The notes under the pieces: model-generated
Databases searched by the model: none
What the model was told of the DNA's origin: nothing
The model's input: the letters and a program-made list of their open reading frames with translations, nothing else
Position numbers and translations under genes: made by a program
Part shown: in pieces, positions 5,504-43,368 of the stretch
How positions within the stretch are numbered: the stretch's first letter is position 1
Layout of the letters: the number at the start of each line of letters is the position of its first letter
Origin: a virus
UHGV virus genome: UHGV-1355725
DNA length: 44,514 bases
Strand: one strand, 5' to 3'

Positions 5504-7774
5504 TTAGTACCCCGGCTGGTTTCGTGTAGCTCGGCGTGACTTGGAGATTGCGCTGTTGCTGTCCTGCAACGCCGCCGATACTGTTTCGCTGATGATAACA
5601 CGTAACCGCCCTTCGTCGTCACGTTCTGTTACGGCGGAATCAACACGTCCGGTGGTGTTGTTAACAATTGTCACGCTGTCACCGCCTGACTTGTTGCCGT
5701 TCTCCCCCATAATCTGGCGCATCTGTTCGGCGGTACGGACGCGTGACGCCCCCGCTGGCATAATAACTTCAGGCTTGTTACGTTCCGCGATGGTAGATAG
5801 CTGGCCAGCTGCCAAGTTACCGCCCTGCTCACGCGCTGAGCGAATCTTTCCTATGTTCGCGAGACCTGCTGCTACGGCTGCTGCCGCTGCCACAGGGCCG
5901 AGTACCCAACCAACAATAGGAATCGCGGACGCGGATTTATAAGCCTCGATGGCAGAGGTGTATGTGGCGATGGTGGCCTGGGCGATAGCAAACGCTTTGT
6001 ACGCGGAGGATGCTTCTCCAAGCGAAGATTTAATATTGTCCGCCATCATACCGAAGGCGTTACCTGTAGCATTGGCACGCTTCAAAGCATACTGGTCATT
6101 TATGGCGTTAACCGCAGCCTGGTACTGTTCCTCGTTAATAAGATTCTGTTCACGGTATCGGTCAGCAACGTCCAGTTTTTGTTGTTCCTGAATTTCCAGA
6201 AGCTCAAGCTCAGTAGCGTTCTGGCCCATAATCTGAGCCATGAAGTCGTCACCTTTCTGCTGTTTTTCTTGGGCTTCTTTCTGGCGTTTATCCAGTTCAT
6301 CTTGTCGTTTTTGCCCTGCTTCGAGGACAATAGCCGTTTTTGCTTGCTCATATTCTTTCAGTGACAGCGCGCCCTGGCTGTAGAACTCTTTTGCCTTAGC
6401 CAGTTTCTGCTGTTCCTGCGCGTCAATAGCCTTTAACTCGTCGTTGTTCTGGCGGGCCAAAGTGTCGAGGTAATCTTGCGCCTGATTCCGCAATTGTTCC
6501 GCTTTCTTGGCGGCGGCTTTTGCCGCTTTATCGTCAGCGTTTCCGGTGCCGCCAGTTCCACCCTTTTTATTAACAAGGCTGGCTAAGTCAATTTCTTGCT
6601 TCTTGCGCTCGTCGTACTGCTTGCGCTGTTCCTCAATTTCTTTCTTACGCTGCTTAGACCTGTCTGTAATGGCCCGCGATTCAGCCTCTGCACGTTTTAT
6701 ACTGGCGGCGTATGCGGCGTCGGCCTCTGCGGTCAGGTTTTTAAAGGTGAGCGCTGCCGTTTTGCTCGGGTCAAACACGTCGGCAAGGGTCTGGCCTAAC
6801 GCTACTGCGTAATCGTCAATGCGCTGGAACCACGCAATAACCTCGTGGAATGTCTGCTGGATGTCAGGCAACCACTCACGTATGGCATCAGGTATAGCCC
6901 CCAGCGAATCTGACATATCCGCGGATTTGTCCTCGGTGTCGTATGCTAGGTCGTTCAAGGCATCGGAAATAAACTTGAACGACTCGTTGAACAGCGTCGC
7001 CCAGTCCTGGAGTGTGGCGGCTATCTCATTAGATGCGATGGCGTCGGTAAGCGCCGTTACAGCGTCTTCCGCCATCGCTGCTTGCTCACCCACGGCGTCA
7101 CCAAAACCGGATTGAGCTACCGCAAGAACAAGACCATCGAAGGAGTCGGCGAGGCTCGACAACTGACCATCTAAGGTCTTAGAGCGCGTCTCCATCGCCC
7201 CGGCGAAATCAGTGTTACCGATGTTTAACAGGTATTTCTGAATCTCTTCGGAGTTCTTTTTAACGGTGGTGGTAACCCCTCGGAACGTAAACGAAACTGT
7301 ATCCGCCTGTTGCGAAGACTTGATGCCAAACTCTTTCAGTCGTTCAAACTCAAATGTACTGGCGTCGGCAACTGCCTCAATCATCTGATTAAGGTCTTTA
7401 CCCATAGCCGCCGCGGTGTTGCCGTAGGAGATTAACGCCTCTTTGCTGGGGTTCAGGCCGAGGGCTACAAGTTTAGTGAAGCCCTCGACCGCCTGATTGA
7501 GACCGTACGGAGTTTCTTTTGCGAACTGTTGCAGTACGCTGAAAGCCTTAGCCGCGTTCTCTGCGCTTCCGGTCATTGTGATGAGGCCGGAATTCAGCTT
7601 ATCGAAGTTGCGCTGAGAGTCCACCAGCGCGCTGAACACCTGCTTAGCGGTTTCCAGACTGACAACGGCAGCGGCAGCAGCCCCCGCCGCCTTAGTAAGC
7701 CCGTTCAGTTGGGATGTGGTTTTATCGACGCCGGTCGATGATACTCGTACTATCAAGCTAGCGGTATCAGCCAT
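5504..7774 (-). CDS. tail tape measure protein
   Basis: About 756 aa from ATG at 7774 (MADTASLIV...); Ala/Gln/Lys/Glu-rich coiled-coil stretch (EIEEQRKQYDERKKQ...); directly downstream of the G/GT chaperone pair. Confidence 0.8.
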   Translation of the reverse strand: MADTASLIVRVSSTGVDKTTSQLNGLTKAAGAAAAAVVSLETAKQVFSALVDSQRNFDKLNSGLITMTGSAENAAKAFSVLQQFAKETPYGLNQAVEGFTKLVALGLNPSKEALISYGNTAAAMGKDLNQMIEAVADASTFEFERLKEFGIKSSQQADTVSFTFRGVTTTVKKNSEEIQKYLLNIGNTDFAGAMETRSKTLDGQLSSLADSFDGLVLAVAQSGFGDAVGEQAAMAEDAVTALTDAIASNEIAATLQDWATLFNESFKFISDALNDLAYDTEDKSADMSDSLGAIPDAIREWLPDIQQTFHEVIAWFQRIDDYAVALGQTLADVFDPSKTAALTFKNLTAEADAAYAASIKRAEAESRAITDRSKQRKKEIEEQRKQYDERKKQEIDLASLVNKKGGTGGTGNADDKAAKAAAKKAEQLRNQAQDYLDTLARQNNDELKAIDAQEQQKLAKAKEFYSQGALSLKEYEQAKTAIVLEAGQKRQDELDKRQKEAQEKQQKGDDFMAQIMGQNATELELLEIQEQQKLDVADRYREQNLINEEQYQAAVNAINDQYALKRANATGNAFGMMADNIKSSLGEASSAYKAFAIAQATIATYTSAIEAYKSASAIPIVGWVLGPVAAAAAVAAGLANIGKIRSAREQGGNLAAGQLSTIAERNKPEVIMPAGASRVRTAEQMRQIMGENGNKSGGDSVTIVNNTTGRVDSAVTERDDEGRLRVIISETVSAALQDSNSAISKSRRATRNQPGY

Positions 7775-8548
7775 GATTTCTACCTTCAAAGATTGCTTCT
7801 AAGCCCATGATAACGTCTATCTCGAACAGGCTAAGCTGTTTTTGCGTAACATCGAGATAGGCTTTCAGGTCTTGCCACGTAACGGATTCTCTTGCAAACA
7901 ATACTACAGCGTCCTCGCGCACGTGTCGCGTAAACTTAATGTCACAGTACGTCTCAAAGGTGGATATAAAAAGGGGCGGGCATTCGGGCCCACCCCGTCG
8001 CGCTGCACGTTTTTTCTTATCGATTACACCCATCGCGATAAGCGCCTGTTCGTGTCCGTCGGCTATAGAATCAAACTCTCTGATTTTATGCTTATCCACA
8101 AACTCGTAGGTGGCGAACCTGTACAGCGCGTCTACTTTTCCTGTAATGCTTTGCGCTCGGCGTTATGGAACGCAGCTACCTGTGTACCCAATGCCTTGAA
8201 CTGATCCAGCAATTTGCTAAATGCTTCTTTAGAGAAAGGCTCATCAAAGCTCCAGCCGTTTACGACTTCTGCCGCGAGTTGTCGGTTGAGGTCTTCCGCC
8301 AGTTCGTTAATAGCCAGGTTATATTCAGTATAGTCGCCGGATTCTTTGGCGGCTTTTTCCAGTTCTTCGAAACGCGCCAACCCGCGACGGTACGCAATAA
8401 TGAAAGCACGCCCCGCTTTAACGGCGACATCCGCATCGGGACTTACAACGTTAAGCCATTCACCGGAGTCTTCGCCGTTTGGCAGCAGAATGGGCATCTT
8501 CTTGCCTACCAGTGCTTTCTCTTCGAAATAAAAATCAGAAAGTTTCAT
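7767..8548 (-). CDS. tail assembly chaperone GT fusion (predicted -1 frameshift product)
   Basis: The -1 frame relative to G opens at 8162 and runs to 7767, overlapping the tape measure start; G ends ...CAG GAA AAG TAG with the A-rich run GGAAAAG (8135-8141) as candidate slip site. Confidence 0.5.
8132..8548 (-). CDS. tail assembly chaperone (G-like)
   Basis: 138-aa acidic ORF, ATG 8548 with RBS AAAGGA; sits immediately upstream of the tape measure gene; the -1 frame is open across its last codons. Confidence 0.6.
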   Translation of the reverse strand: MKLSDFYFEEKALVGKKMPILLPNGEDSGEWLNVVSPDADVAVKAGRAFIIAYRRGLARFEELEKAAKESGDYTEYNLAINELAEDLNRQLAAEVVNGWSFDEPFSKEAFSKLLDQFKALGTQVAAFHNAERKALQEK

Positions 8549-8655
8549 TCTTTAATCCTTTGGTTAAGAGGTTACAGGTTAAGGTTAATGCGCCAGACGG
8601 GAACCACCCGCTTTTCGTGTGCGACACTAGGCGCAAACTTATTCTAGCACACTAC

Positions 8656-8687
8656 TTGCGCACCCCAATATAATAGGGTACTATTCA
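8656..8687 (+). promoter_or_regulatory. class-1 promoter with embedded inverted-repeat operator
   Basis: TTGCGC (8656-8661), 17-bp spacer, TACTAT (8679-8684); inverted repeat AATAG-GGTA-CTATT at 8672-8685; followed by RBS AAGGAG and ATG 8715. Confidence 0.5.
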
Positions 8688-8714
8688 CTCACACCGACAA
8701 TGAAGGAGTTTAAA

Positions 8715-8906
8715 ATGTCCAGTTTACCAGTTTCCTTAATTCTGTTTGCGCTACTAGCCTATTTTGCGCCTTTCCTGGTTGCGTATTTCCGCGACCATAA
8801 AGCGAAGTTAGCGATATTCATGGCCAACCTGTTTCTGGGCTGGATTCTGTTGCCGTGGGTATTTATTTTAATCTGGGCTTGTAACTCGAATGTCAAAGAG
8901 AAGTGA
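8715..8906 (+). CDS. small membrane protein, superinfection-immunity-like
   Basis: 63 aa, two hydrophobic segments; motif YFAPFLVAYFRDHKAKLAIFMANLFLGW...ILIWA resembles the small superinfection-immunity membrane protein family; encoded opposite to the surrounding tail genes. Confidence 0.5.
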   Translation: MSSLPVSLILFALLAYFAPFLVAYFRDHKAKLAIFMANLFLGWILLPWVFILIWACNSNVKEK

Positions 8907-8944
8907 GCTAGTATAGGACAAATCCTAAACACGAGGAAGTAAGC

Positions 8945-10084
8945 ATGGCCCAGAAGAAAATAACCGACGAACAGTTACAGGAAGAATTGAACGCCGGGAT
9001 GAAGAATGTAGACATCGCCCGTAAATACGGCATCTCAGACCGCGTTATTCGTATCCGTAAAGCAAAACTAGCTAAGAAAGGCGTAGGTCATGGGCGTGAC
9101 GTTAGTCACCTTGTGCCAGATGGCTACAAGATTAAGGGCACGTCGTCACTTGTGGACGAGTTCGGCAACACTAAGTTGCAATGGGTTAAGACCGACACCG
9201 ACGCCGAACGTCAGGTTGAATTGATGAAAGCCGTAGTTGAAGGCATGAAGTCAGAGATTACGCCGGTTGCGCCTGTTAAAGCGACTCGCGCCAAACGCAA
9301 CGATAAACTACTCAATCTTTACACGGTATCTGATTTTCATCTCGGTATGCTGGCATGGGCCGACGAGAGCGGCGACGACTGGGATATGAAGATTGCGGAA
9401 GACCTGTTCTCCCGTTGGTTTGATGCTGCATTTCAGAAAGCGCCTGATGCGGGAACAGGAGTTATTAACCTGCTTGGAGACTTCGCGCACTTCGATAGTC
9501 TTGATGCCGTTACCCCTGAGTCGCGTCATGTGTTAGACGCCGATACTCGCTATCAGAAACTAGTTCGCTACATGATTCGTATGGTGCGTCGTGTTGTTGA
9601 TATGGCGCTTGTTAAACATCACACAGTCAAACTCTTAATAGTTCAAGGTAACCACGACCCTGTAGGCTCTGTATGGCTCGCCGAAATGTTCTGTACATTG
9701 TACGATAACGAACCTCGCGTATTTGTGGACACCTCCCCCGACGTATACAAGATGGTCCAGCACGGGAAAACTACGCTATTCATGCATCACGGACACCGTG
9801 CGAGATTCGACGCCATAGAGTCAGTAATGATTTCTAAATTCCGTAAGGCTTTTGGAGAAAGCACATACAGCTACGCTCATGTAGGGCATCTACATCATCA
9901 GAAATTAGTAGAAAGCCGCAATATGGTAGTCGAACAACACCGAACCCTGGCCGCGAAAGATGCTTACGCATCGCGAGGGGGCTGGATGTCCGGTCGTAGT
10001 GCTAACGTGATAACTTATAGCGCCGAATATGGGGAGGTGGCGCGCCTCACAATATCACCTGAAATGATAGGAGGTATAAATTGA
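8945..10084 (+). CDS. HTH domain fused to calcineurin-like metallophosphoesterase
   Basis: 379 aa; N-terminal HTH-like segment (VDIARKYGISDRVIRIRKAK); C-terminal metallophosphoesterase motifs DFHLG, GDFAHFD, GNHD, HHGH, GHLHH; RBS GAGGAAG before ATG 8945. Confidence 0.6.
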   Translation: MAQKKITDEQLQEELNAGMKNVDIARKYGISDRVIRIRKAKLAKKGVGHGRDVSHLVPDGYKIKGTSSLVDEFGNTKLQWVKTDTDAERQVELMKAVVEGMKSEITPVAPVKATRAKRNDKLLNLYTVSDFHLGMLAWADESGDDWDMKIAEDLFSRWFDAAFQKAPDAGTGVINLLGDFAHFDSLDAVTPESRHVLDADTRYQKLVRYMIRMVRRVVDMALVKHHTVKLLIVQGNHDPVGSVWLAEMFCTLYDNEPRVFVDTSPDVYKMVQHGKTTLFMHHGHRARFDAIESVMISKFRKAFGESTYSYAHVGHLHHQKLVESRNMVVEQHRTLAAKDAYASRGGWMSGRSANVITYSAEYGEVARLTISPEMIGGIN

Positions 10085-10554
10085 CATGGAATGACGTTTA
10101 CGAATACGAAAACGGGAATCTTTACGCTAAGAGCAGCGTAAACCCTAAGTACCCGAAAGGACGTAAAGTAGGGTACGTTGACCACCGCGGATATGTAAGA
10201 ACTAAACTAGGATCAAAAATGACATTCGCCCACAGAATTATATGGGAAATGTTTAACGGAGCTATACCAGAAGGCAAGGAGATTGACCATATAAACGGTG
10301 TGAAAAGCGATAACCGTATAGAGAATCTTCGACTGTGCGACCGGCACATAAACTGCAAAAATGCAGCAAAGCGCAGGGATAACTCGTCTGGTGTTACCGG
10401 GGTTAGTAAAACATACAACGGTAAATGGGTCGTTCAAATTCAATATAACGGGAATAGAATAGCCAAGCGTTTCGACCAAAAAGAAGACGCCGTAAGATAT
10501 GCAGAATGTTTTTACAAAGAAAAGAAAGACTTTACTGAGAGGCACGGAAAATGA
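10081..10554 (+). CDS. HNH homing endonuclease (HNH plus AP2-like DNA-binding domain)
   Basis: Motifs HRIIWEMFNG...IDHINGVKSDNRIENLRL (HNH) and GVTGVSKTYNGKWVVQIQYNG...F (AP2-like); TTG start overlapping the upstream stop (TTGA), RBS AGGAGG. Confidence 0.8.
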   Translation: MTWNDVYEYENGNLYAKSSVNPKYPKGRKVGYVDHRGYVRTKLGSKMTFAHRIIWEMFNGAIPEGKEIDHINGVKSDNRIENLRLCDRHINCKNAAKRRDNSSGVTGVSKTYNGKWVVQIQYNGNRIAKRFDQKEDAVRYAECFYKEKKDFTERHGK

Positions 10555-10781
10555 CTTCAAAATACAACCGCACAATGACAAATACTCACGGCAGCACTAT
10601 GACTGTAGACGTTTACGATGTGCTGCGCGCCTTCGACATCCGCGACCCGGCGTTGCAGCACGCATTAAAGAAACTTTTGTGTATGGGCTTGCGTGGGCAC
10701 AAAGACACCGGAACCGACTTAGCAGAAGCAATTGAAAGTCTGGAAAAGTTACGGGAGTATAGAAGCAATATCGACGAATAA
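10551..10781 (+). CDS. hypothetical protein
   Basis: 76-aa ORF, ATG overlaps the HNH stop (ATGA); same insertion operon. Confidence 0.45.
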   Translation: MTSKYNRTMTNTHGSTMTVDVYDVLRAFDIRDPALQHALKKLLCMGLRGHKDTGTDLAEAIESLEKLREYRSNIDE

Positions 10782-10795
10782 CTACGAGGTATTTT

Positions 10796-10918
10796 ATGAA
10801 ACTAATTATTAACTTCTTTAAAGCCTTAACAGGTAACGATTTTGAGATTGACGGAGGTTGGCTAGTGTATGACCCTAATTTTGATACTTGGTTGTGGCAT
10901 AAAGAGAAACCTCGATGA
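10796..10918 (+). CDS. small hypothetical protein
   Basis: 40-aa ORF with RBS ACGAGG, last ORF before the terminator. Confidence 0.25.
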   Translation: MKLIINFFKALTGNDFEIDGGWLVYDPNFDTWLWHKEKPR

Positions 10919-10920
10919 GA

Positions 10921-10948
10921 AAAAGGCCCCGAAAGGGGCCTTAGTTTT
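10921..10948. terminator. bidirectional rho-independent terminator
   Basis: Hairpin AGGCCCC-gaa-GGGGCCT (10924-10941) flanked by A-run on one side and T-run on the other; lies between convergent genes (plus insertion operon, minus major tail gene). Confidence 0.6.
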
Positions 10949-12116
10949 ATGCGTAGGTGATACGCTGGATAACAATAGACGACTGGTACTGATTGCCGGT
11001 AGCCTGGCCTTCAATGGACTGAGTGATTGACTCAGGCCCGCCAATCTCTGGTGTAACCGCCGTAAGTTCCGCACGTTTCAGGCTGAAAGACATAGCCCCA
11101 TTTACCCCCGCCAGAATAGAGTTAATCTCTACCTGCTGCTCGTTGATAAACTTCTGAATCATCGCCATGTCGTACAGCTTGCCGGAGATGGAGAATGTGT
11201 TAGCTGCGCGGCCTCGCTCCACGAACGCGACGCTACTGTTGCCTAGTTCGAACTGCGCGGAAGCGCCATTGTCGTTTGTGATAGTGAGAGTGTCGCAGCG
11301 CAACGGCGTAGAACCGTCGAATACCGAAACGTCAACAGAAGAGAACGGCTCATCGGTGAACGTCACCTGCGAGAAATCAGAACCGGCTGGCGGCGCGGTA
11401 AGAATCTCCTGACTCAAGCCGATGAACGGGAAACTACCTGTCACCATCGCATTAACAGCCTGCTCGATGGTGAAACCTGATATTTCCACGCCTTTGGTCA
11501 ACATGTACGCGTCCTGGTTACCGCACTGGCCTTTGAACCATGTCAGGATGGAGAAAGTCTTACATGCGTTACCCGTTTCCAGTTTGTCGCCAGTTTTTCC
11601 ATCGGTCTCAATAGGGCCTTCGGCGGTCAGGGTGTGTTGAATACCCGCACCCGTAACCACAGTAGCAGTTACTGAGGTAACGATGAACGGCTTAGAGTTA
11701 TCGCCGGTTAAAGCGTCAAAATACAGAAGGTCCCCGACCTCTACACCGTCAGTAATGAAACTGCCAGTGTCGCGGGTGAAAGTTTTTGCTACCGGGTCTA
11801 CTGTAATACCGACAGCGGATAAGGTTACCCCATCCTGCCATGTGGATGTCATCGCACCAGCAAGGAAATCATCCTGGCTACGGGAGCTAAGCTCGATAGC
11901 GTACTCCCCGCTAACCTGCTTGTTACCGGTGCGGATGGACGTAGTTTCACGGCTGCCGTCCAGCTCGTTGGAAGTCAGTGCATCGCGGGTTACCGCAGGA
12001 ACGCCGCCAGTGTTGCGCAACGGCGACCATACCGGGTTACTTGGTGTTACACCCGGGGTCACTTCCGCCACATAGAATTGCGCGGTATTCGCGCCCTTAA
12101 AAGGAGTTGTAGCCAT
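10947..12116 (-). CDS. major tail protein
   Basis: About 389 aa from ATG 12116 with RBS AAGAGG; last large structural gene before the chaperone/tape-measure block; followed by a terminator. Confidence 0.5.
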   Translation of the reverse strand: MATTPFKGANTAQFYVAEVTPGVTPSNPVWSPLRNTGGVPAVTRDALTSNELDGSRETTSIRTGNKQVSGEYAIELSSRSQDDFLAGAMTSTWQDGVTLSAVGITVDPVAKTFTRDTGSFITDGVEVGDLLYFDALTGDNSKPFIVTSVTATVVTGAGIQHTLTAEGPIETDGKTGDKLETGNACKTFSILTWFKGQCGNQDAYMLTKGVEISGFTIEQAVNAMVTGSFPFIGLSQEILTAPPAGSDFSQVTFTDEPFSSVDVSVFDGSTPLRCDTLTITNDNGASAQFELGNSSVAFVERGRAANTFSISGKLYDMAMIQKFINEQQVEINSILAGVNGAMSFSLKRAELTAVTPEIGGPESITQSIEGQATGNQYQSSIVIQRITYA

Positions 12117-12118
12117 AT

Positions 12119-12535
12119 TCACAGCCTCTTGGTGAATGCAATAAAGTTAATTGACAATGGTCGTTTGGCCCATCCGTTTTCTACAATCAGCGGCCCCAGG
12201 CTTACCGATTGAACCTCGGCGCAGATGTCGTTACGTGAAAATGACTTACCTGCTTTAAACGCCGTGTTAAGTAAGTCTGCCATTTTATTGATTGGCGCGC
12301 TACCTTTCACCGATGCGTAGTTAATGTCAACCTGATAGACACCTGAACGTTGTTCCGTGAAGAACAAGTCCGCCTGTTCCGTATCTGCCAGCAACATGTA
12401 ACTTGCCAGATACGGCGTATCAGTTGACGTCGGTGCGTCGATGTTTTCGAGCGCGACCTTGATGCCATTGGCGGCTCCGAAAGCTACCAGCGGCACGTCA
12501 AACGCTTTGGTTAAGTCCTCAAAGTAGCCCATCAT
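12119..12535 (-). CDS. tail terminator / tail completion protein
   Basis: 138-aa ORF immediately upstream of the major tail gene; call is positional. Confidence 0.35.
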   Translation of the reverse strand: MMGYFEDLTKAFDVPLVAFGAANGIKVALENIDAPTSTDTPYLASYMLLADTEQADLFFTEQRSGVYQVDINYASVKGSAPINKMADLLNTAFKAGKSFSRNDICAEVQSVSLGPLIVENGWAKRPLSINFIAFTKRL

Positions 12536-17688: not shown

Positions 17689-17720
17689 TTGCAGACACCA
17701 ATATAATAGGGTACTATTCA
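17689..17720 (+). promoter_or_regulatory. class-1 promoter with embedded inverted-repeat operator
   Basis: TTGCAG (17689-17694), 17-bp spacer, TACTAT (17712-17717); inverted repeat AATAG-GGTA-CTATT 17705-17718; RBS AGGAGG and ATG 17745 follow. Confidence 0.5.
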
Positions 17721-17744
17721 GTTAACTTAAACAGGAGGCGATAT

Positions 17745-17975
17745 ATGGGTACATACACACATTCTATAAACTGGAAAGGCAGACGTGGTTTGGCGGTTCT
17801 CGAAGGGGGTGTTTCAGGCCCCCACGCGTTTGGGTGGTGGCTAGTGCCATCGTATTCAAACAAACATGGCGGGCAGGACTACGACTGGAATAACGCCGTT
17901 CCTACTAGATTCAAAACAAAGAAAGCCGCGTTGGATGCACGTAAAGAGTTAAGAAAAGGAGGATTATTTTTATAG
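17745..17975 (+). CDS. hypothetical protein (single-gene insertion)
   Basis: 76-aa ORF with own promoter and terminator, on the opposite strand to the flanking late genes. Confidence 0.5.
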   Translation: MGTYTHSINWKGRRGLAVLEGGVSGPHAFGWWLVPSYSNKHGGQDYDWNNAVPTRFKTKKAALDARKELRKGGLFL

Positions 17976-17980
17976 TAAAA

Positions 17981-18008
17981 CTAAGGCCCCATTATGGGGC
18001 CTTTTATC
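17981..18008. terminator. bidirectional rho-independent terminator
   Basis: Hairpin AGGCCCC-attat-GGGGCCT (17984-18002) followed by TTTT; lies between convergent stops. Confidence 0.6.
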
Positions 18009-18468
18009 ATTCTGGCTTAGTGACCTTCGCCGCTTTGCTTACCACCTCTACACCATCGGCATCGGTAACTTTAACGAAGTATTCACCCGCCGCGTTAACC
18101 GTCAGAGACAAAGCCTCTTCCGGGGCGTTGACTACTTCCTTACCGTCTTTGTACCAGGTCAGCACATATGGCGCTTTGCCCGCCTTAACTTCAACAGTGA
18201 TAGTTGCGCTGCCGTCTGCTGGTTCGACGTCTTTCGGTTGCACCGAGAAGTACACGTCACCCGCGTCCGCCAGATACGGAATCTCATAAAGCATACCCGC
18301 CGCCGGGAGCGCAATACCGGTTTTATCCGCAAACGGCATATCGTCTACCGGTGTACCTAGTACACTTTCATCTTCGATAAATACCACATTCTCGCTAGAG
18401 CCAGACACGCGGGCGTACTGGACTACGCGACGAGAAGGTACATCAGTTACTTTGAAAAAGCCCATCAT
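18007..18468 (-). CDS. Ig-like domain structural protein
   Basis: 153 aa; C-terminal Ig-like segment (ATITVEVKAGKAPYVLTWYKDGKEV...GEYFVKVTDADG); coupled to the head morphogenesis gene. Confidence 0.45.
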   Translation of the reverse strand: MMGFFKVTDVPSRRVVQYARVSGSSENVVFIEDESVLGTPVDDMPFADKTGIALPAAGMLYEIPYLADAGDVYFSVQPKDVEPADGSATITVEVKAGKAPYVLTWYKDGKEVVNAPEEALSLTVNAAGEYFVKVTDADGVEVVSKAAKVTKPE

Positions 18469-20405
18469 TATTCCCCTTTCAGATAATCAGCAACACGTCT
18501 ATCGAGTTCCGCCATCTGCTTAAGCGTGAGCGGATTCCCGAAACCATCTACAGATATTACGCGAAACTCTTCCGGCGATATACCGCTGTTGCGGAAAATC
18601 TTACCCCGCACCGGGCCTAACGCCTGGTCCTGAAACCATGCAGGTTGTTGTTTAAGGAACTCGTAATAAGTGGTGTCCGCACTTACCTGAGTTCCGCCAT
18701 CTGCACCCTTAGCCGCGCGTTTTGCGCCTTTATCCAGGAAGTCGAACTCTGAACTGATTACAGGTGCCGTGGTACTTCGGCAGCCAAAATGGGCTGGGGG
18801 CATTGGCCCTTTACCAATCTCCCACGTCATTCCGTCTCTGGCCCTGCAATTCTTGACTATCGCACTACCTGCTGTATAATATCCTTGACTACTAGAGAGG
18901 GTATAAACATGGCACGTTCTAAACTCGACGCTTATGCGGATGATATTTGTTCTTTGTACCGAGATGGCACTCCCGCCAGCATCATAGCCAAGAATTACGG
19001 CGTCACTACCACCACGGTAACAACATTTCTCAAGAAGCTCGGACTCATGCATGATCGACCCCGTGGTTGGGTTTCTAACGACACCATTTTGAATCAAAAA
19101 AGGGCTATAGAATTGTTCGAGTCCGGCGTCCCGCCTATTGAGTGCATAAGAAGGACCCAAGTCAGCAAAACAGTTTTCTATTCTATGGTCAAAACACTTG
19201 GCCTCGCTAAGCGCGGGCACACTCACAGGACATTCACCCCGGAGGAGAAAATCGCCAGAGCTATCGTCCGACAGCAAAGCGGCGCTATGAATAAGACTGA
19301 AACCATCGCTTTTGAATTGTTTAATTCCGCTGGCGTGGACGTAGTTCCGCAGTTTGCAATCGGCCCGTACAATGTCGATTTTGCCATTGAGTCCCACTCC
19401 ATCGCCATAGAAATCTGTTGCCGCGGGACTCGTGCTTACCATTTTCCTGATGGGGAAATCAGCGAGCGTATTAAAAATATAATCCGCTCTGGCTGGCATG
19501 TTTATGTTCTTCACTGTTTCGAGCACAGTCACTTTGTCAACAGTGGTATACAAGACATGCTTAGTTGGATCGAGTTCATCAAGCGGAGTCCATCCGTATT
19601 GCGTGAGTACAGGGTGTTTCGGGGTGCCACTGAACTTCTCGCCGTTGGAAAGTTCGATGGTAAAGATTTTTCCTGAATAGAGTCCGCGCATTACCGCGTC
19701 CATCCCCGCGATGGGCGCTAATTCTGTTTCAGCCGTGAAACACGTTGTACTGGTACGGCTGTCCAATGTTGATACCCACTCATATTTCTCGATGATGTCG
19801 TCGTTCTGGCGGTACGTCTCGTTACGTGCTTCATTGGACACGTGAGACAGCGCGGTGCGGATTACAGTAGCCGCGTTACGTTCAGAGATGTCAGCCAGTC
19901 CGCCAGCGCCTACAACACTTTTAACAATCTGCCGCGTAGTTTGGCCTTGTACGAAGCCCATCTTAACGCCAGTTACCAGGCGCGCGACTTCTGTTTCACC
20001 CCAACCTGACATCAGCTTGGTGAAGTCAACAGGCTTGTCGCTCAGTGAGAGCGGCTGAAACTCGGCGGCGGCCCACACCTGTTCTGCGGTAGGTGTAACA
20101 AATTCCGCGTTAACGTTGGCGGTCAGTGTCTTTACGTTCCACTCAGCCTCATACTTCGCCAATTCCTTAAGGTCTTCTGTCAGCTTTGTTTGCCAGTCAC
20201 CTGTAAGCCAGGTTAGCGCTTCTTCAAGGTTGAGTAACAGTTTATTCAGTCGCGCAGTGCTCCGCCCGTCGTCGCCGAATAACAGCACCTGCCGTTTGAT
20301 TTCGTCCCGCATTTCCTGAATGAACGGTGCAAGGTCTTTCACTTCTCCGGAAGCGGTTCGTTGCAGCCATATCTGGTGGCTGATTAAGGATGTAAGTAAG
20401 CTCAT
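18468..20405 (-). CDS. head morphogenesis protein (SPP1 gp7 / Mu F-like) interrupted by an intein
   Basis: ATG 20405 with RBS AGGAGG; F-like motifs WVSTLDSRTSTT (before the intein) and GKGPMPPAHFGCRS (after); 298-aa insertion with intein signatures between them; located just after the portal gene. Confidence 0.7.
   Translation of the reverse strand: MSLLTSLISHQIWLQRTASGEVKDLAPFIQEMRDEIKRQVLLFGDDGRSTARLNKLLLNLEEALTWLTGDWQTKLTEDLKELAKYEAEWNVKTLTANVNAEFVTPTAEQVWAAAEFQPLSLSDKPVDFTKLMSGWGETEVARLVTGVKMGFVQGQTTRQIVKSVVGAGGLADISERNAATVIRTALSHVSNEARNETYRQNDDIIEKYEWVSTLDSRTSTTCFTAETELAPIAGMDAVMRGLYSGKIFTIELSNGEKFSGTPKHPVLTQYGWTPLDELDPTKHVLYTTVDKVTVLETVKNINMPARADYIFNTLADFPIRKMVSTSPAATDFYGDGVGLNGKIDIVRADCKLRNYVHASGIKQFKSDGFSLIHSAALLSDDSSGDFLLRGECPVSVPALSEAKCFDHRIENCFADLGPSYALNRRDAGLEQFYSPFLIQNGVVRNPTTGSIMHESELLEKCCYRGGSDAVILGYDAGGSAISVQRTNIIRISVEFRTCHVYTLSSSQGYYTAGSAIVKNCRARDGMTWEIGKGPMPPAHFGCRSTTAPVISSEFDFLDKGAKRAAKGADGGTQVSADTTYYEFLKQQPAWFQDQALGPVRGKIFRNSGISPEEFRVISVDGFGNPLTLKQMAELDRRVADYLKGE
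18853..18880 (+). promoter_or_regulatory. near-consensus sigma70-type promoter inside the intein, antisense to the head morphogenesis gene
   Basis: TTGACT (18853-18858), 16-bp spacer, TATAAT (18875-18880); RBS GAGAGGG and ATG 18909 follow. Confidence 0.5.
18909..19676 (+). CDS. nested antisense gene: HTH domains plus DUF559/Vsr-like (PD-(D/E)xK-type) endonuclease domain, candidate homing endonuclease
   Basis: 255 aa from ATG 18909; two HTH-like segments (IIAKNYGVTTTTVTTFLKKLGL; IECIRRTQVSKTVFYSMVKTLGL); C-terminal YNVDFAIESHSIAIEI...RSGWHVYVL resembling Vsr/DUF559 endonucleases; lies entirely within the intein on the opposite strand. Confidence 0.55.
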   Translation: MARSKLDAYADDICSLYRDGTPASIIAKNYGVTTTTVTTFLKKLGLMHDRPRGWVSNDTILNQKRAIELFESGVPPIECIRRTQVSKTVFYSMVKTLGLAKRGHTHRTFTPEEKIARAIVRQQSGAMNKTETIAFELFNSAGVDVVPQFAIGPYNVDFAIESHSIAIEICCRGTRAYHFPDGEISERIKNIIRSGWHVYVLHCFEHSHFVNSGIQDMLSWIEFIKRSPSVLREYRVFRGATELLAVGKFDGKDFS

Positions 20406-20448
20406 AGGCCCTCCTGTAGTATCGACAGTGTAACGCATAAAAATAATA

Positions 20449-20481
20449 TTTGCAGACACCAATATAATAGGGTACTATTCA
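20449..20481 (+). promoter_or_regulatory. class-1 promoter with embedded inverted-repeat operator
   Basis: TTGCAG (20449-20454), 17-bp spacer, TACTAT (20473-20478); inverted repeat AATAG-GGTA-CTATT 20466-20479; 40-nt block identical to the copy at 17689. Confidence 0.5.
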
Positions 20482-20506
20482 GTTAACTTAAACAGGGGGG
20501 TTAAAA

Positions 20507-20791
20507 ATGACACACAAATTTAAAGGTACAGACGGCGCATGGGTTAATCACGGAACAGCTATCTGGGCGGGGGACGTTTATGTGGCCGAGGTAATGAGTA
20601 TGCGGGAAAAGGACTCCGTAAAATTAGCTAACGCAAAACTTATCACCTCGGCACCCGAGTTACTTGAAGCACTTCGCCAGCTTCGCGATTACGTCGAGGA
20701 TGTTTGTGCAGTATCTTCTGATGATTGCCATGAAGACCATCCATTAAATCGGGCCAACAGAGCAATCAAGAAAGCATTAGGAAAGAAATAA
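20507..20791 (+). CDS. hypothetical protein (single-gene insertion)
   Basis: 94-aa ORF between the head morphogenesis and portal genes on the opposite strand; own promoter and terminator. Confidence 0.5.
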   Translation: MTHKFKGTDGAWVNHGTAIWAGDVYVAEVMSMREKDSVKLANAKLITSAPELLEALRQLRDYVEDVCAVSSDDCHEDHPLNRANRAIKKALGKK

Positions 20792-20794
20792 AAA

Positions 20795-20820
20795 TAAGGC
20801 CCCATAACGGGGCCTTTTTC
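20795..20820. terminator. bidirectional rho-independent terminator
   Basis: Hairpin AAGGCCCC-ataac-GGGGCCTT followed by TTTTTC; between convergent stops (20791 plus, 20822 minus). Confidence 0.6.
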
Positions 20821-28751: not shown

Positions 28752-28784
28752 ATGAATAGTATCCTATTATATCTTAGCGTGCAA
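28752..28784 (-). promoter_or_regulatory. class-1 promoter with embedded inverted-repeat operator (minus strand)
   Basis: Minus strand TTGCAC (rc of 28779-28784), 17-bp spacer, TACTAT (rc of 28756-28761); inverted repeat AATAG-TATC-CTATT 28755-28768. Confidence 0.5.
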
Positions 28785-43339: not shown

Positions 43340-43368
43340 AAAAGGCCCCGTTTGGGGCCTTAGTTTTA
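43340..43368. terminator. bidirectional rho-independent terminator
   Basis: Hairpin AGGCCCC-gttt-GGGGCCT with flanking A/T runs; between the plus replication module and the minus tailspike gene. Confidence 0.6.

Follow-up and report, generated by a model that had tools for sequence, protein, structure and literature searches.

The locus described here raises two questions: why five genes on the plus strand sit in the tail module of a phage whose late genes lie on the minus strand, and what the longest of the five does. The locus is part of UHGV-1355725, a virus genome of 44,514 nucleotides (nt) that we call the window. An open reading frame (ORF) listing of the window places the five plus-strand ORFs at 8715-10918, flanked by the tail-tube gene on one side and the tail-chaperone genes on the other (Table 1). 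A preliminary description, made from the letters alone, had read this cassette as a gene for a two-transmembrane Imm-like protein, a gene fusing a helix-turn-helix (HTH) to a metallophosphoesterase (MPE) domain, a gene for an HNH endonuclease with an AP2-like tail, and two small ORFs. It had also given the operon its own promoter and bidirectional terminator. ORF and family scans bore out the gene content, and a repeated promoter motif at 8656 and a hairpin that was scored as a terminator on both strands agreed with the proposed control elements.

The window is from a Kagunavirus, a member of the Guernseyvirinae. A megablast search with positions 8000-12200 matched 384 phage records, nearly all of them Salmonella and Escherichia Guernseyvirinae. 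The top matches were E. coli Kagunavirus genomes at 85-90% identity, and the closest record covered 85% of the query at 88% identity. Across 25 kb, the closest record covered only 78% at 90.5% identity, which indicates an undescribed species-level Kagunavirus. The gene order was the same in every relative that we fetched: the tape measure gene and the two tail assembly chaperone genes, then the Imm-like gene, the HTH-MPE gene, a variable slot, and the tail tube gene. We examined 9 fetched loci and about 40 rows spread across the 671 matching records of a sensitive search. In every Kagunavirus and Jerseyvirus locus among them, the Imm-like and HTH-MPE genes lay between the tail tube and the chaperones, so the locus is no peculiarity of this genome, contrary to what the preliminary description had implied. 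The two genes of this core were 86-97% identical and in conserved synteny in all Kagunavirus relatives, even in those free of any HNH gene. Because the position is shared by all loci examined, we conclude from gene order that the cassette is an ancestral accessory operon of the Guernseyvirinae and not a recent insertion. The preliminary description had reckoned with relatives that carry these genes here in structural roles; all relatives examined do carry the genes at this position, but not in structural roles.

The tail-module locus of other Guernseyvirinae (K1G ORF18-21 and its equivalents in SETP3, wksl3, and Bas70-76) has the same position, orientation, and Imm plus HTH-MPE core as the window, and it also conserves the divergent intergenic region. 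The window differs from it in having a phosphoesterase gene that is a Kagunavirus/Jerseyvirus chimera. Records of the relatives label the genes as "immunity to superinfection," "DNA repair exonuclease / calcineurin-like phosphoesterase," and the like. Codon differences between the window and its relatives revealed purifying selection on all five plus-strand ORFs. The slot downstream of the core varies in content. It holds a HAD-type PNKP phosphatase and a deoxynucleoside monophosphate (dNMP) kinase-like P-loop protein in K1G, the same pair plus a 58-amino-acid (aa) gene in ST20, a HAD gene with 76-aa and 40-aa genes in phiEc3, and a 76-aa gene only in Bas74. In AV104 it holds a different HNH gene (42% identical) and the 76-aa gene, and in the Salmonella Jerseyvirus PST-H1 it holds an HNH gene, the 76-aa gene, and an Ant-like gene. 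Across the examined loci, the contents were a polynucleotide kinase (PNK)-type phosphatase with a dNMP kinase, the 76-aa gene, HNH genes, or Ant/Roi-like genes. The combination found in the window, this HNH allele with the 76-aa and 40-aa genes on a Kagunavirus backbone, was absent from the phage collection that we compared (50,697 records).

The HNH gene is inserted exactly between the phosphoesterase stop codon and the start of the 76-aa gene. Bas74 is colinear with the window to 10072, has no counterpart of the next 478 nt (10073-10550), and resumes at the start codon of the 76-aa gene. The phosphoesterase and 76-aa genes of Bas74 overlap by ATGA, and the corresponding overlaps in the window are TTGA and ATGA. 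The HNH gene is likewise absent from this junction in K1G and ST20. It matched PF13392 HNH_3 (75.5 bits, against 24.8), PHROG 99 (E = 1.8e-49), and the PADLOC HEase models (E = 3e-7). Its product is 99.4% identical to the homing endonuclease of Salmonella phage PST-H1. The allele was found at an identity of at least 99% in six records only, and the one listed is a Salmonella phage.

The similarity to PST-H1 extends beyond the HNH gene. Over the whole tract given in Table 1, the window and PST-H1 are 98.5% identical (15 mismatches in 1,002 nt), with dense mismatches on either side. In 100-nt profiles, identity to PST-H1 was 53-84% up to 9589 and 74-85% beyond 10591, and identity to the Kagunavirus relatives dropped from about 90-97% to 68-79% over 9501-10072. 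In the encoded phosphoesterase, residues 1-215 match the Kagunavirus type at 96% and PST-H1 at 84%; for residues 216-379 the figures are 88% and 99.4%, respectively. Because the PST-H1-like tract of about 1 kb covers only the 3' part of the phosphoesterase gene, these identities indicate that the protein is a chimera, of Kagunavirus type in the first segment and of Jerseyvirus type in the second. The same pattern points to endonuclease-driven gene conversion, with asymmetric co-conversion that reached about 490 nt in the upstream direction and about 40 nt in the downstream one. We conclude from these comparisons that the HNH gene was recently acquired by homing across genera, from a donor resembling a Jerseyvirus. 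It explains how it arrived itself and why about 1 kb around it was converted, and not the acquisition of the cassette, for which the preliminary description had tentatively invoked it. That the entire 2.3-kb operon entered the tail module recently from a foreign source, mobilized by the HNH gene, is hardly credible: the opposite orientation, the lower G+C (0.43 with positive skews, only at 10001-11000, amid surroundings of about 0.50-0.53), and the mobile endonuclease gene would suit it, but it is refuted by the synteny of the core in HNH-free relatives, by the HNH-free Bas74 junction, and by the limits of the foreign tract, and only the HNH and small-ORF part is low in G+C.

Free-standing phage HNH homing endonucleases of the HNH_3 plus AP2/NUMOD type include the T4 mob genes and the T5 F-Tfl enzymes. 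The window gene resembles them in its intergenic insertion with start/stop overlaps, its presence/absence polymorphism, and its co-conversion tract. It differs in that its activity is a predicted one and in that the transfer crossed genera, from a Salmonella Jerseyvirus type to an E. coli Kagunavirus. Unrelated HNH_3, NUMOD4-HNH, and GIY-YIG genes adjoin the phosphoesterase homologue in other lineages (L006 6241-6750, L010 9300-10025, L011 9280-9825, and L015 2126-2596; these loci are from Vibrio phages, a Paraburkholderia prophage, a metagenomic contig, and the Kagunavirus AV104). Because unrelated endonuclease genes abut the homologue in several lineages, the 3' end of the conserved phosphoesterase gene is evidently a recurrent homing target.

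The phosphoesterase belongs to PHROG 704 ("DNA repair exonuclease," E = 2.5e-162). Its Pfam scores fell below the gathering thresholds (Metallophos, 18.4 versus 21.5; Metallophos_2, 22.3 versus 27). However, some relatives exceed the Metallophos threshold, such as P0128 at 25.1, and we attribute the low score to a family too divergent for the generic model. All five MPE motifs are present: D130 and H132; G178 and D179; G235, N236, H237, and D238; H282; and G314, H315, and H317. In a family alignment of 70 diverse members, D130, H132, G178, D179, N236, H237, H282, G314, and H317 were invariant. The metal-binding residues, whose loss the preliminary description had considered, are thus kept. Among 124 closer members, W80, K82, H182, D184, T190, P191, D198, D200, R202, H281, H284, H312, H332, and D339 were invariant as well. 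The N termini across the family matched the sigma-70 region 4, LuxR/GerE, Fis, LysR, and other HTH models.

An AlphaFold model of the phosphoesterase (predicted local distance difference test score, 83) consists of a three-helix HTH, a β-hairpin with a helix, and the MPE domain. The latter has the α-β-β-α sandwich of calcineurin-like enzymes. The loop of residues 186 to 199 is conserved, yet it was modeled with low confidence. The preliminary description had posed a choice between Mre11/SbcD-like and cyclic-nucleotide phosphodiesterase-like active sites, and the evidence is divided. Motif I (SDFHLG) and motif II (GDFAH) resemble those of Mre11, and the nearest solved folds appear to be those of SbcD/Mre11, whereas the top Foldseek match was the cyclic-nucleotide phosphodiesterase Rv0805. 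A single-sequence search of the PDB with the phosphoesterase found nothing, and a profile search gave marginal HTH and Mre11 matches only. A BFVD search gave only uncharacterized viral homologues. NCBIfam and PADLOC returned nothing for the phosphoesterase, the Imm-like protein, or the small ORFs.

Homologues of the phosphoesterase are abundant. A tblastn search found them in 2,044 phage records, ranging over the Guernseyvirinae, Dhillonvirus (74% identity), T1-like phages, Klebsiella Webervirus-type phages, and Vibrio, Rhodobacter, and Campylobacter phages. An exhaustive HMMER search yielded 4,519 clusters at 50% identity, mostly of full-length proteins of 370-420 aa. The gene is near universal in T1-like, Dhillonvirus, and Guernseyvirinae siphophages. 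In T1-like phages it lies upstream of the holin-endolysin-spanin genes, and Dhillonvirus has it at the genome end, behind the lysis genes. Vibrio and Rhodobacter phages carry it next to their lysis genes, and in a Paraburkholderia prophage and lambdoid contigs it falls between a nin-like region and the terminase. Because the gene is placed elsewhere outside the Guernseyvirinae, its move into the tail module is best read as an old event at the root of this subfamily.

The "DNA repair exonuclease" of the Drexlerviridae, including T1 gp16, is a full-length homologue (40-44% identity) with the same HTH plus MPE architecture. The same kind of variable slot follows T1 gp16, with PNK, dNMP kinase, HNH, or small proteins. 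T1 gp16 differs from the window gene in lying ahead of the lysis genes rather than in the tail module and in having no Imm-like partner gene. Across the Drexlerviridae the phosphoesterase gene is persistent (508/522), and the genes downstream of it are most often those for PNK and dNMP kinase and sometimes an HNH gene (PMC13164509). The HAD domain of K1G is homologous to the phosphatases of T4 Pnkp and Pnkp1, and its P-loop protein falls in the dNMP-kinase family PHROG 139. A DNA methyltransferase gene lies about 0.4-2 kb from the phosphoesterase gene in a T1-like phage (L004 3203-3916), in Rhodobacter phage RcKeef (L007 6558-7841), and in the Paraburkholderia prophage (L010 5215-6132). If the phosphoesterase is a DNase, a nearby methyltransferase is possibly relevant to sparing phage DNA.

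We suggest, at a probability of about 0.45, that the phosphoesterase is an HTH-tethered two-metal DNA phosphodiesterase that serves host-DNA breakdown, nucleotide salvage, or end processing. The operon would be expressed apart from the structural genes, because its promoter/operator type is that of the small early genes. The N-terminal HTH would hold the two-metal phosphodiesterase on DNA, where it would work as a stand-alone SbcD/Mre11-like nuclease. In relatives, DNA breakdown would feed the neighboring 3'-phosphatase and dNMP kinase. We favor a DNA substrate because the family has a ubiquitous DNA-binding-type HTH, SbcD/Mre11-like motifs, and an apparently similar fold, because a Pnkp-type 3'-phosphatase and a dNMP kinase are linked to it in two unrelated phage families, and because it behaves as a core gene, one that homing endonucleases have targeted repeatedly. 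The enzyme with which T1 and TLS degrade host DNA has not yet been identified (PMC11447400). The favored functional model is Gp48 of mycobacteriophage A10ZJ24, a stand-alone, early-expressed MPE that acts as a DNase on host DNA. It has no ATPase partner and depends on its catalytic motifs (PMC12287305). However, its role has been seen only in mycobacteria, and it is likened to the window protein by description, not by homology. The mutated motif residues of Gp48 (D10 and D41) are close to its N terminus, which suggests that it has no N-terminal HTH.

Several points weigh against this reading. When the family profile was compared with the PDB, Thermotoga maritima Mre11 aligned over motifs I and II with an E value of 0.13, which is not significant. 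The C-terminal capping domain that follows the phosphodiesterase domain is absent from the phosphoesterase. A Rad50/SbcC-type ATPase gene is absent from the cassette and from the whole annotated Bas74 genome, and none accompanies the phosphoesterase in its T1-like, Dhillonvirus, Vibrio, and Rhodobacter surroundings. The window also has neither of the two genes, for a PNK phosphatase and a dNMP kinase, that give the salvage argument its appeal. We found no functional study of this family in the literature. In the transcriptome of the Kagunavirus K1B4, which has a coarse time resolution, the Imm gene is in a late-peaking group with the methylase and DNA polymerase genes (PMC12645636). Because the capping domain and the Rad50/SbcC partner are lacking, we place the phosphoesterase outside the SbcD/Mre11 family, in an MPE family of its own that may function much as a lone SbcD/Mre11 nuclease would. 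It is also set apart from Mre11/SbcD by its N-terminal HTH and β-hairpin module and by its many extra invariant residues.

The position beside lysis or packaging genes in other phages is a further point against a DNA phosphodiesterase, in that it would equally suit a late regulator. The phosphoesterase would then be an HTH transcription factor, or a phosphatase directed at RNA polymerase like lambda NinI/PP-lambda, that switches on lysis and packaging genes. Its recurrent place upstream of or beside lysis or terminase genes is the slot that lambda uses for NinI-Q. The HTH is of the sigma-70 region 4/LuxR type and gave a weak match, over residues 5 to 36, to PHROG 836 ("late transcriptional activator"), and some records label the gene as a transcriptional regulator or Ser/Thr phosphatase. 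We nevertheless consider a regulator unlikely.

An anti-defense enzyme, which would hydrolyze the nucleotide signals of CBASS, Pycsar, Thoeris, or type III CRISPR while its HTH autoregulates the operon as in Aca-fused anti-CRISPRs, seems improbable to us. HTH-fused counter-defense proteins do exist, the catalytic site is intact, and Rv0805 acts on cyclic nucleotides. The gene also adjoins a host-interaction gene, the Imm-like one, under an early-type promoter. However, the persistence as a core gene, the conserved HTH, and the SbcD/Mre11-like motifs point more to DNA. The known enzymes Acb1 and Apyc1 have a 2H-phosphoesterase and a metallo-β-lactamase fold, respectively; the phosphoesterase has neither, being a calcineurin-like MPE instead. 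It is a long shot that the protein represents a new counter-defense class, DNA tethered or self-regulating, that destroys a nucleotide immune signal or a defense-generated DNA or RNA end. Such a class would explain the extra invariant polar residues near the two-metal site, the pairing with Imm, and the early-type promoter.

Very unlikely, in our judgment, is a role in RNA end healing, in which the protein would be a 2',3'-cyclic phosphodiesterase that repairs tRNAs cut by host anticodon nucleases together with the PNK phosphatase and P-loop kinase. Bacterial Pnkp does perform the 2',3'-cyclic step with a calcineurin-type phosphoesterase domain, and the linkage in relatives to a Pnkp-type HAD phosphatase and a P-loop kinase would fit. 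However, the annotation of the closely related Bas74 genome includes no RNA ligase, the P-loop protein groups with dNMP kinases, and the HTH points to DNA. Moreover, PNK genes are missing from the window phage and from many others that have the phosphoesterase.

The partner of the phosphoesterase in the core, the Imm-like protein, matched PF14373 Imm_superinfect (47.2 bits against a cutoff of 27.9, E = 2e-12) and PHROG 1039 ("immunity to superinfection," E = 7e-24). Two transmembrane helices are indicated by Kyte-Doolittle 19-mer means above 2.0 at residues ~3-25 and ~32-57. An alternative upstream ATG at 8700 would give a protein of 68 aa. The likeness to T4 Imm thus lies in the Pfam match above threshold, the small size, and the two transmembrane segments. 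T4 Imm is an 83-aa protein. No exclusion phenotype has been reported for the Guernseyvirinae. The Imm-like protein would presumably block DNA entry of a superinfecting phage. The BASEL paper does not discuss this tail-module accessory locus.

Table 1. Coordinates of the cassette, its control elements, and the flanking tail genes in the window
Feature	Position	Strand	Description
Tail assembly chaperone genes, G/GT pair	7767-8548	-	ORFs 8132-8548 (PF08748) and 7767-8099 (PF23812); downstream flank on late strand
int-alpA-like structured RNA motif	8573-8637	-	5' leader of chaperone gene; adjoins the cassette, outside it
Candidate divergent promoter for chaperone/tape measure genes	8641-8668	-	-35 TTGGGG 8668-8663, 16-nt spacer
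Cassette promoter, repeated "class-1" type	8656-8688	+	-35 TTGCGC 8656-8661, 17-nt spacer, -10 TACTAT 8679-8684
Operator-like palindrome AATAGGGTACTATT	8672-8685		Inside cassette promoter
T4 Imm-like superinfection immunity protein, 63 aa	8715-8906	+	ATG behind GAAGGAG Shine-Dalgarno
HTH-metallophosphoesterase, 379 aa	8945-10084	+	HTH 8-44, β-hairpin and helix 61-103, MPE domain 119-379
Gene-conversion tract, Jerseyvirus origin	9590-10591		3' 495 nt of phosphoesterase gene, whole HNH gene, first ~40 nt of 76-aa gene
Free-standing HNH_3 homing endonuclease (predicted), 157 aa	10081-10554	+	TTG start behind GGAGG; AP2-like C-terminal DNA-binding region
76-aa protein, widespread small phage family	10551-10781	+	PHROG 2452, "JK_43P," E = 2.4e-36
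40-aa ORF, real gene	10796-10918	+	CDS of same length annotated in phiEc3
Bidirectional intrinsic terminator AAGGCCCCGAAAGGGGCCTT	10923-10942	both	A-run on 5' side, T-run on 3' side; scored as terminator both ways
Tail tube (major tail) gene	10947-12122	-	PF18906 Phage_tube_2, E = 1.7e-38; annotated as tail tube/major tail protein in relatives; upstream flank on late strand

The cassette promoter is kept in six Kagunavirus loci, and a TATAAT lies within its region at 8669-8674. It belongs to a repeated motif, TTGCnCACCCCAAyATAATAGGnTACTATTCAC, with three copies on the plus strand (8656, 17689, and 20450) and three on the minus strand (near 28755, 30235, and 33959). Of the minus-strand copies, one precedes a lone gene at 33.9 kb, and the other two precede the leftward operon of small genes (about 30.2 kb) and a further group (28.7 kb). 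A generic sigma-70 scan found promoter-like sites no more often than in shuffled sequence; it missed the repeated motif and picked other hexamers. The promoter call therefore rests on the repeat family and on hexamers inferred from the sequence by eye. The palindrome AATAG-N4-CTATT has nine exact copies (8672, 17705, 20466, 28755, 29068, 30235, 34004, 36556, and 41181). A search that allowed up to one mismatch found 14 copies, against 1.1 expected. All of the exact copies except 29068 overlap a promoter motif of one of two architectures, and they do so on both strands. Three strong TTGACA/TATAGT promoters in the replication arm also carry the palindrome, in their spacers. This recurrence in nonstructural promoters makes it look like a common operator, the site of a phage regulator.

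Back to back with the cassette promoter is the candidate promoter of the chaperone and tape measure genes, which has an extended -10 element (TGcTAGAAT at 8649-8641). The TG and TAnnnT of this element are conserved in Bas74, K1G, and PST-H1. The generic sigma-70 scan did not call this promoter. Its predicted start is the first base of the int-alpA-like motif. The motif, the sole Rfam match in the window, matched RF02996 over its full length and scored 31.3 bits (E = 0.011 across the window), short of the gathering score of 35.8. Six Kagunavirus loci preserve it with hardly any change, and a Jerseyvirus keeps it with G-U and compensatory changes. The folding energy of the leader was no better than that of shuffled sequences (z = -0.59), so the support comes from the covariance model and conservation. 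Because a terminator follows the tail tube gene and a candidate promoter and leader RNA precede the chaperone genes, the tail operon appears to have a natural break at the cassette. The joined frameshift product of the chaperone genes is annotated in K1G. The terminator recurs as AAAAGGCCCCGnnnGGGGCCTTAGTTTTA, in two copies that are 90% identical (repeat family D16; 10921-10949 and 43340-43368).

Both small ORFs at the end of the cassette are under strong constraint. The 76-aa protein, whose family occurs in 774 phage records, is 100% identical to its Bas74 counterpart with 91% nucleotide identity (21 synonymous and no nonsynonymous codon differences). Matches to the ends of "ATPase" PHROG profiles had raised the idea that this ORF is the C-terminal remnant of a dNMP-kinase/ATPase gene. 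We dropped it, because BLASTP found no similarity to the K1G ATP-binding protein and the ORF is intact, widespread, and strongly constrained. The 40-aa ORF has four synonymous and no nonsynonymous codon differences from that of phiEc3, and Pfam and PHROG scans found no family for it.

Two more single-gene plus-strand morons lie within the minus-strand head module, at 17745-17975 (76 aa) and 20507-20791 (94 aa). Each has the cassette-type promoter motif and its own GGCCCC hairpin terminator (units 17689-18005 and 20450-20818), and neither protein gave a family match. Elsewhere in the window, the minus-strand ORF 18468-20462, which encodes a MuF/SPP1 gp7-like head morphogenesis protein, contains an intein-like insertion of 298 residues (18849-19742). 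Its first residue is Cys, and it ends in VKN followed by Cys; the Pfam Intein_splicing match is weak (E = 4e-4). It sits exactly at Cys222 of the insertion-free Bas74 homologue, and its flanks are 95% identical.

The cassette of the window itself is an ordinary accessory ("moron"-type) operon of a kind annotated in hundreds of GenBank records. What is new is the cross-genus homing event and the chimeric gene; the rest was already known and annotated. The clean 1-kb conversion tract is a ready substrate for mapping the HNH_3 homing site. Beyond the window, an HTH-metallophosphoesterase with homologues in over 2,000 sequenced phages and a place among the core genes of the Drexlerviridae points to an abundant, uncharacterized enzyme family. 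Together with its linked 3'-phosphatase and dNMP kinase, this phosphoesterase is a concrete candidate for T1-type host-DNA degradation, and one that could be tested in the BASEL phages.

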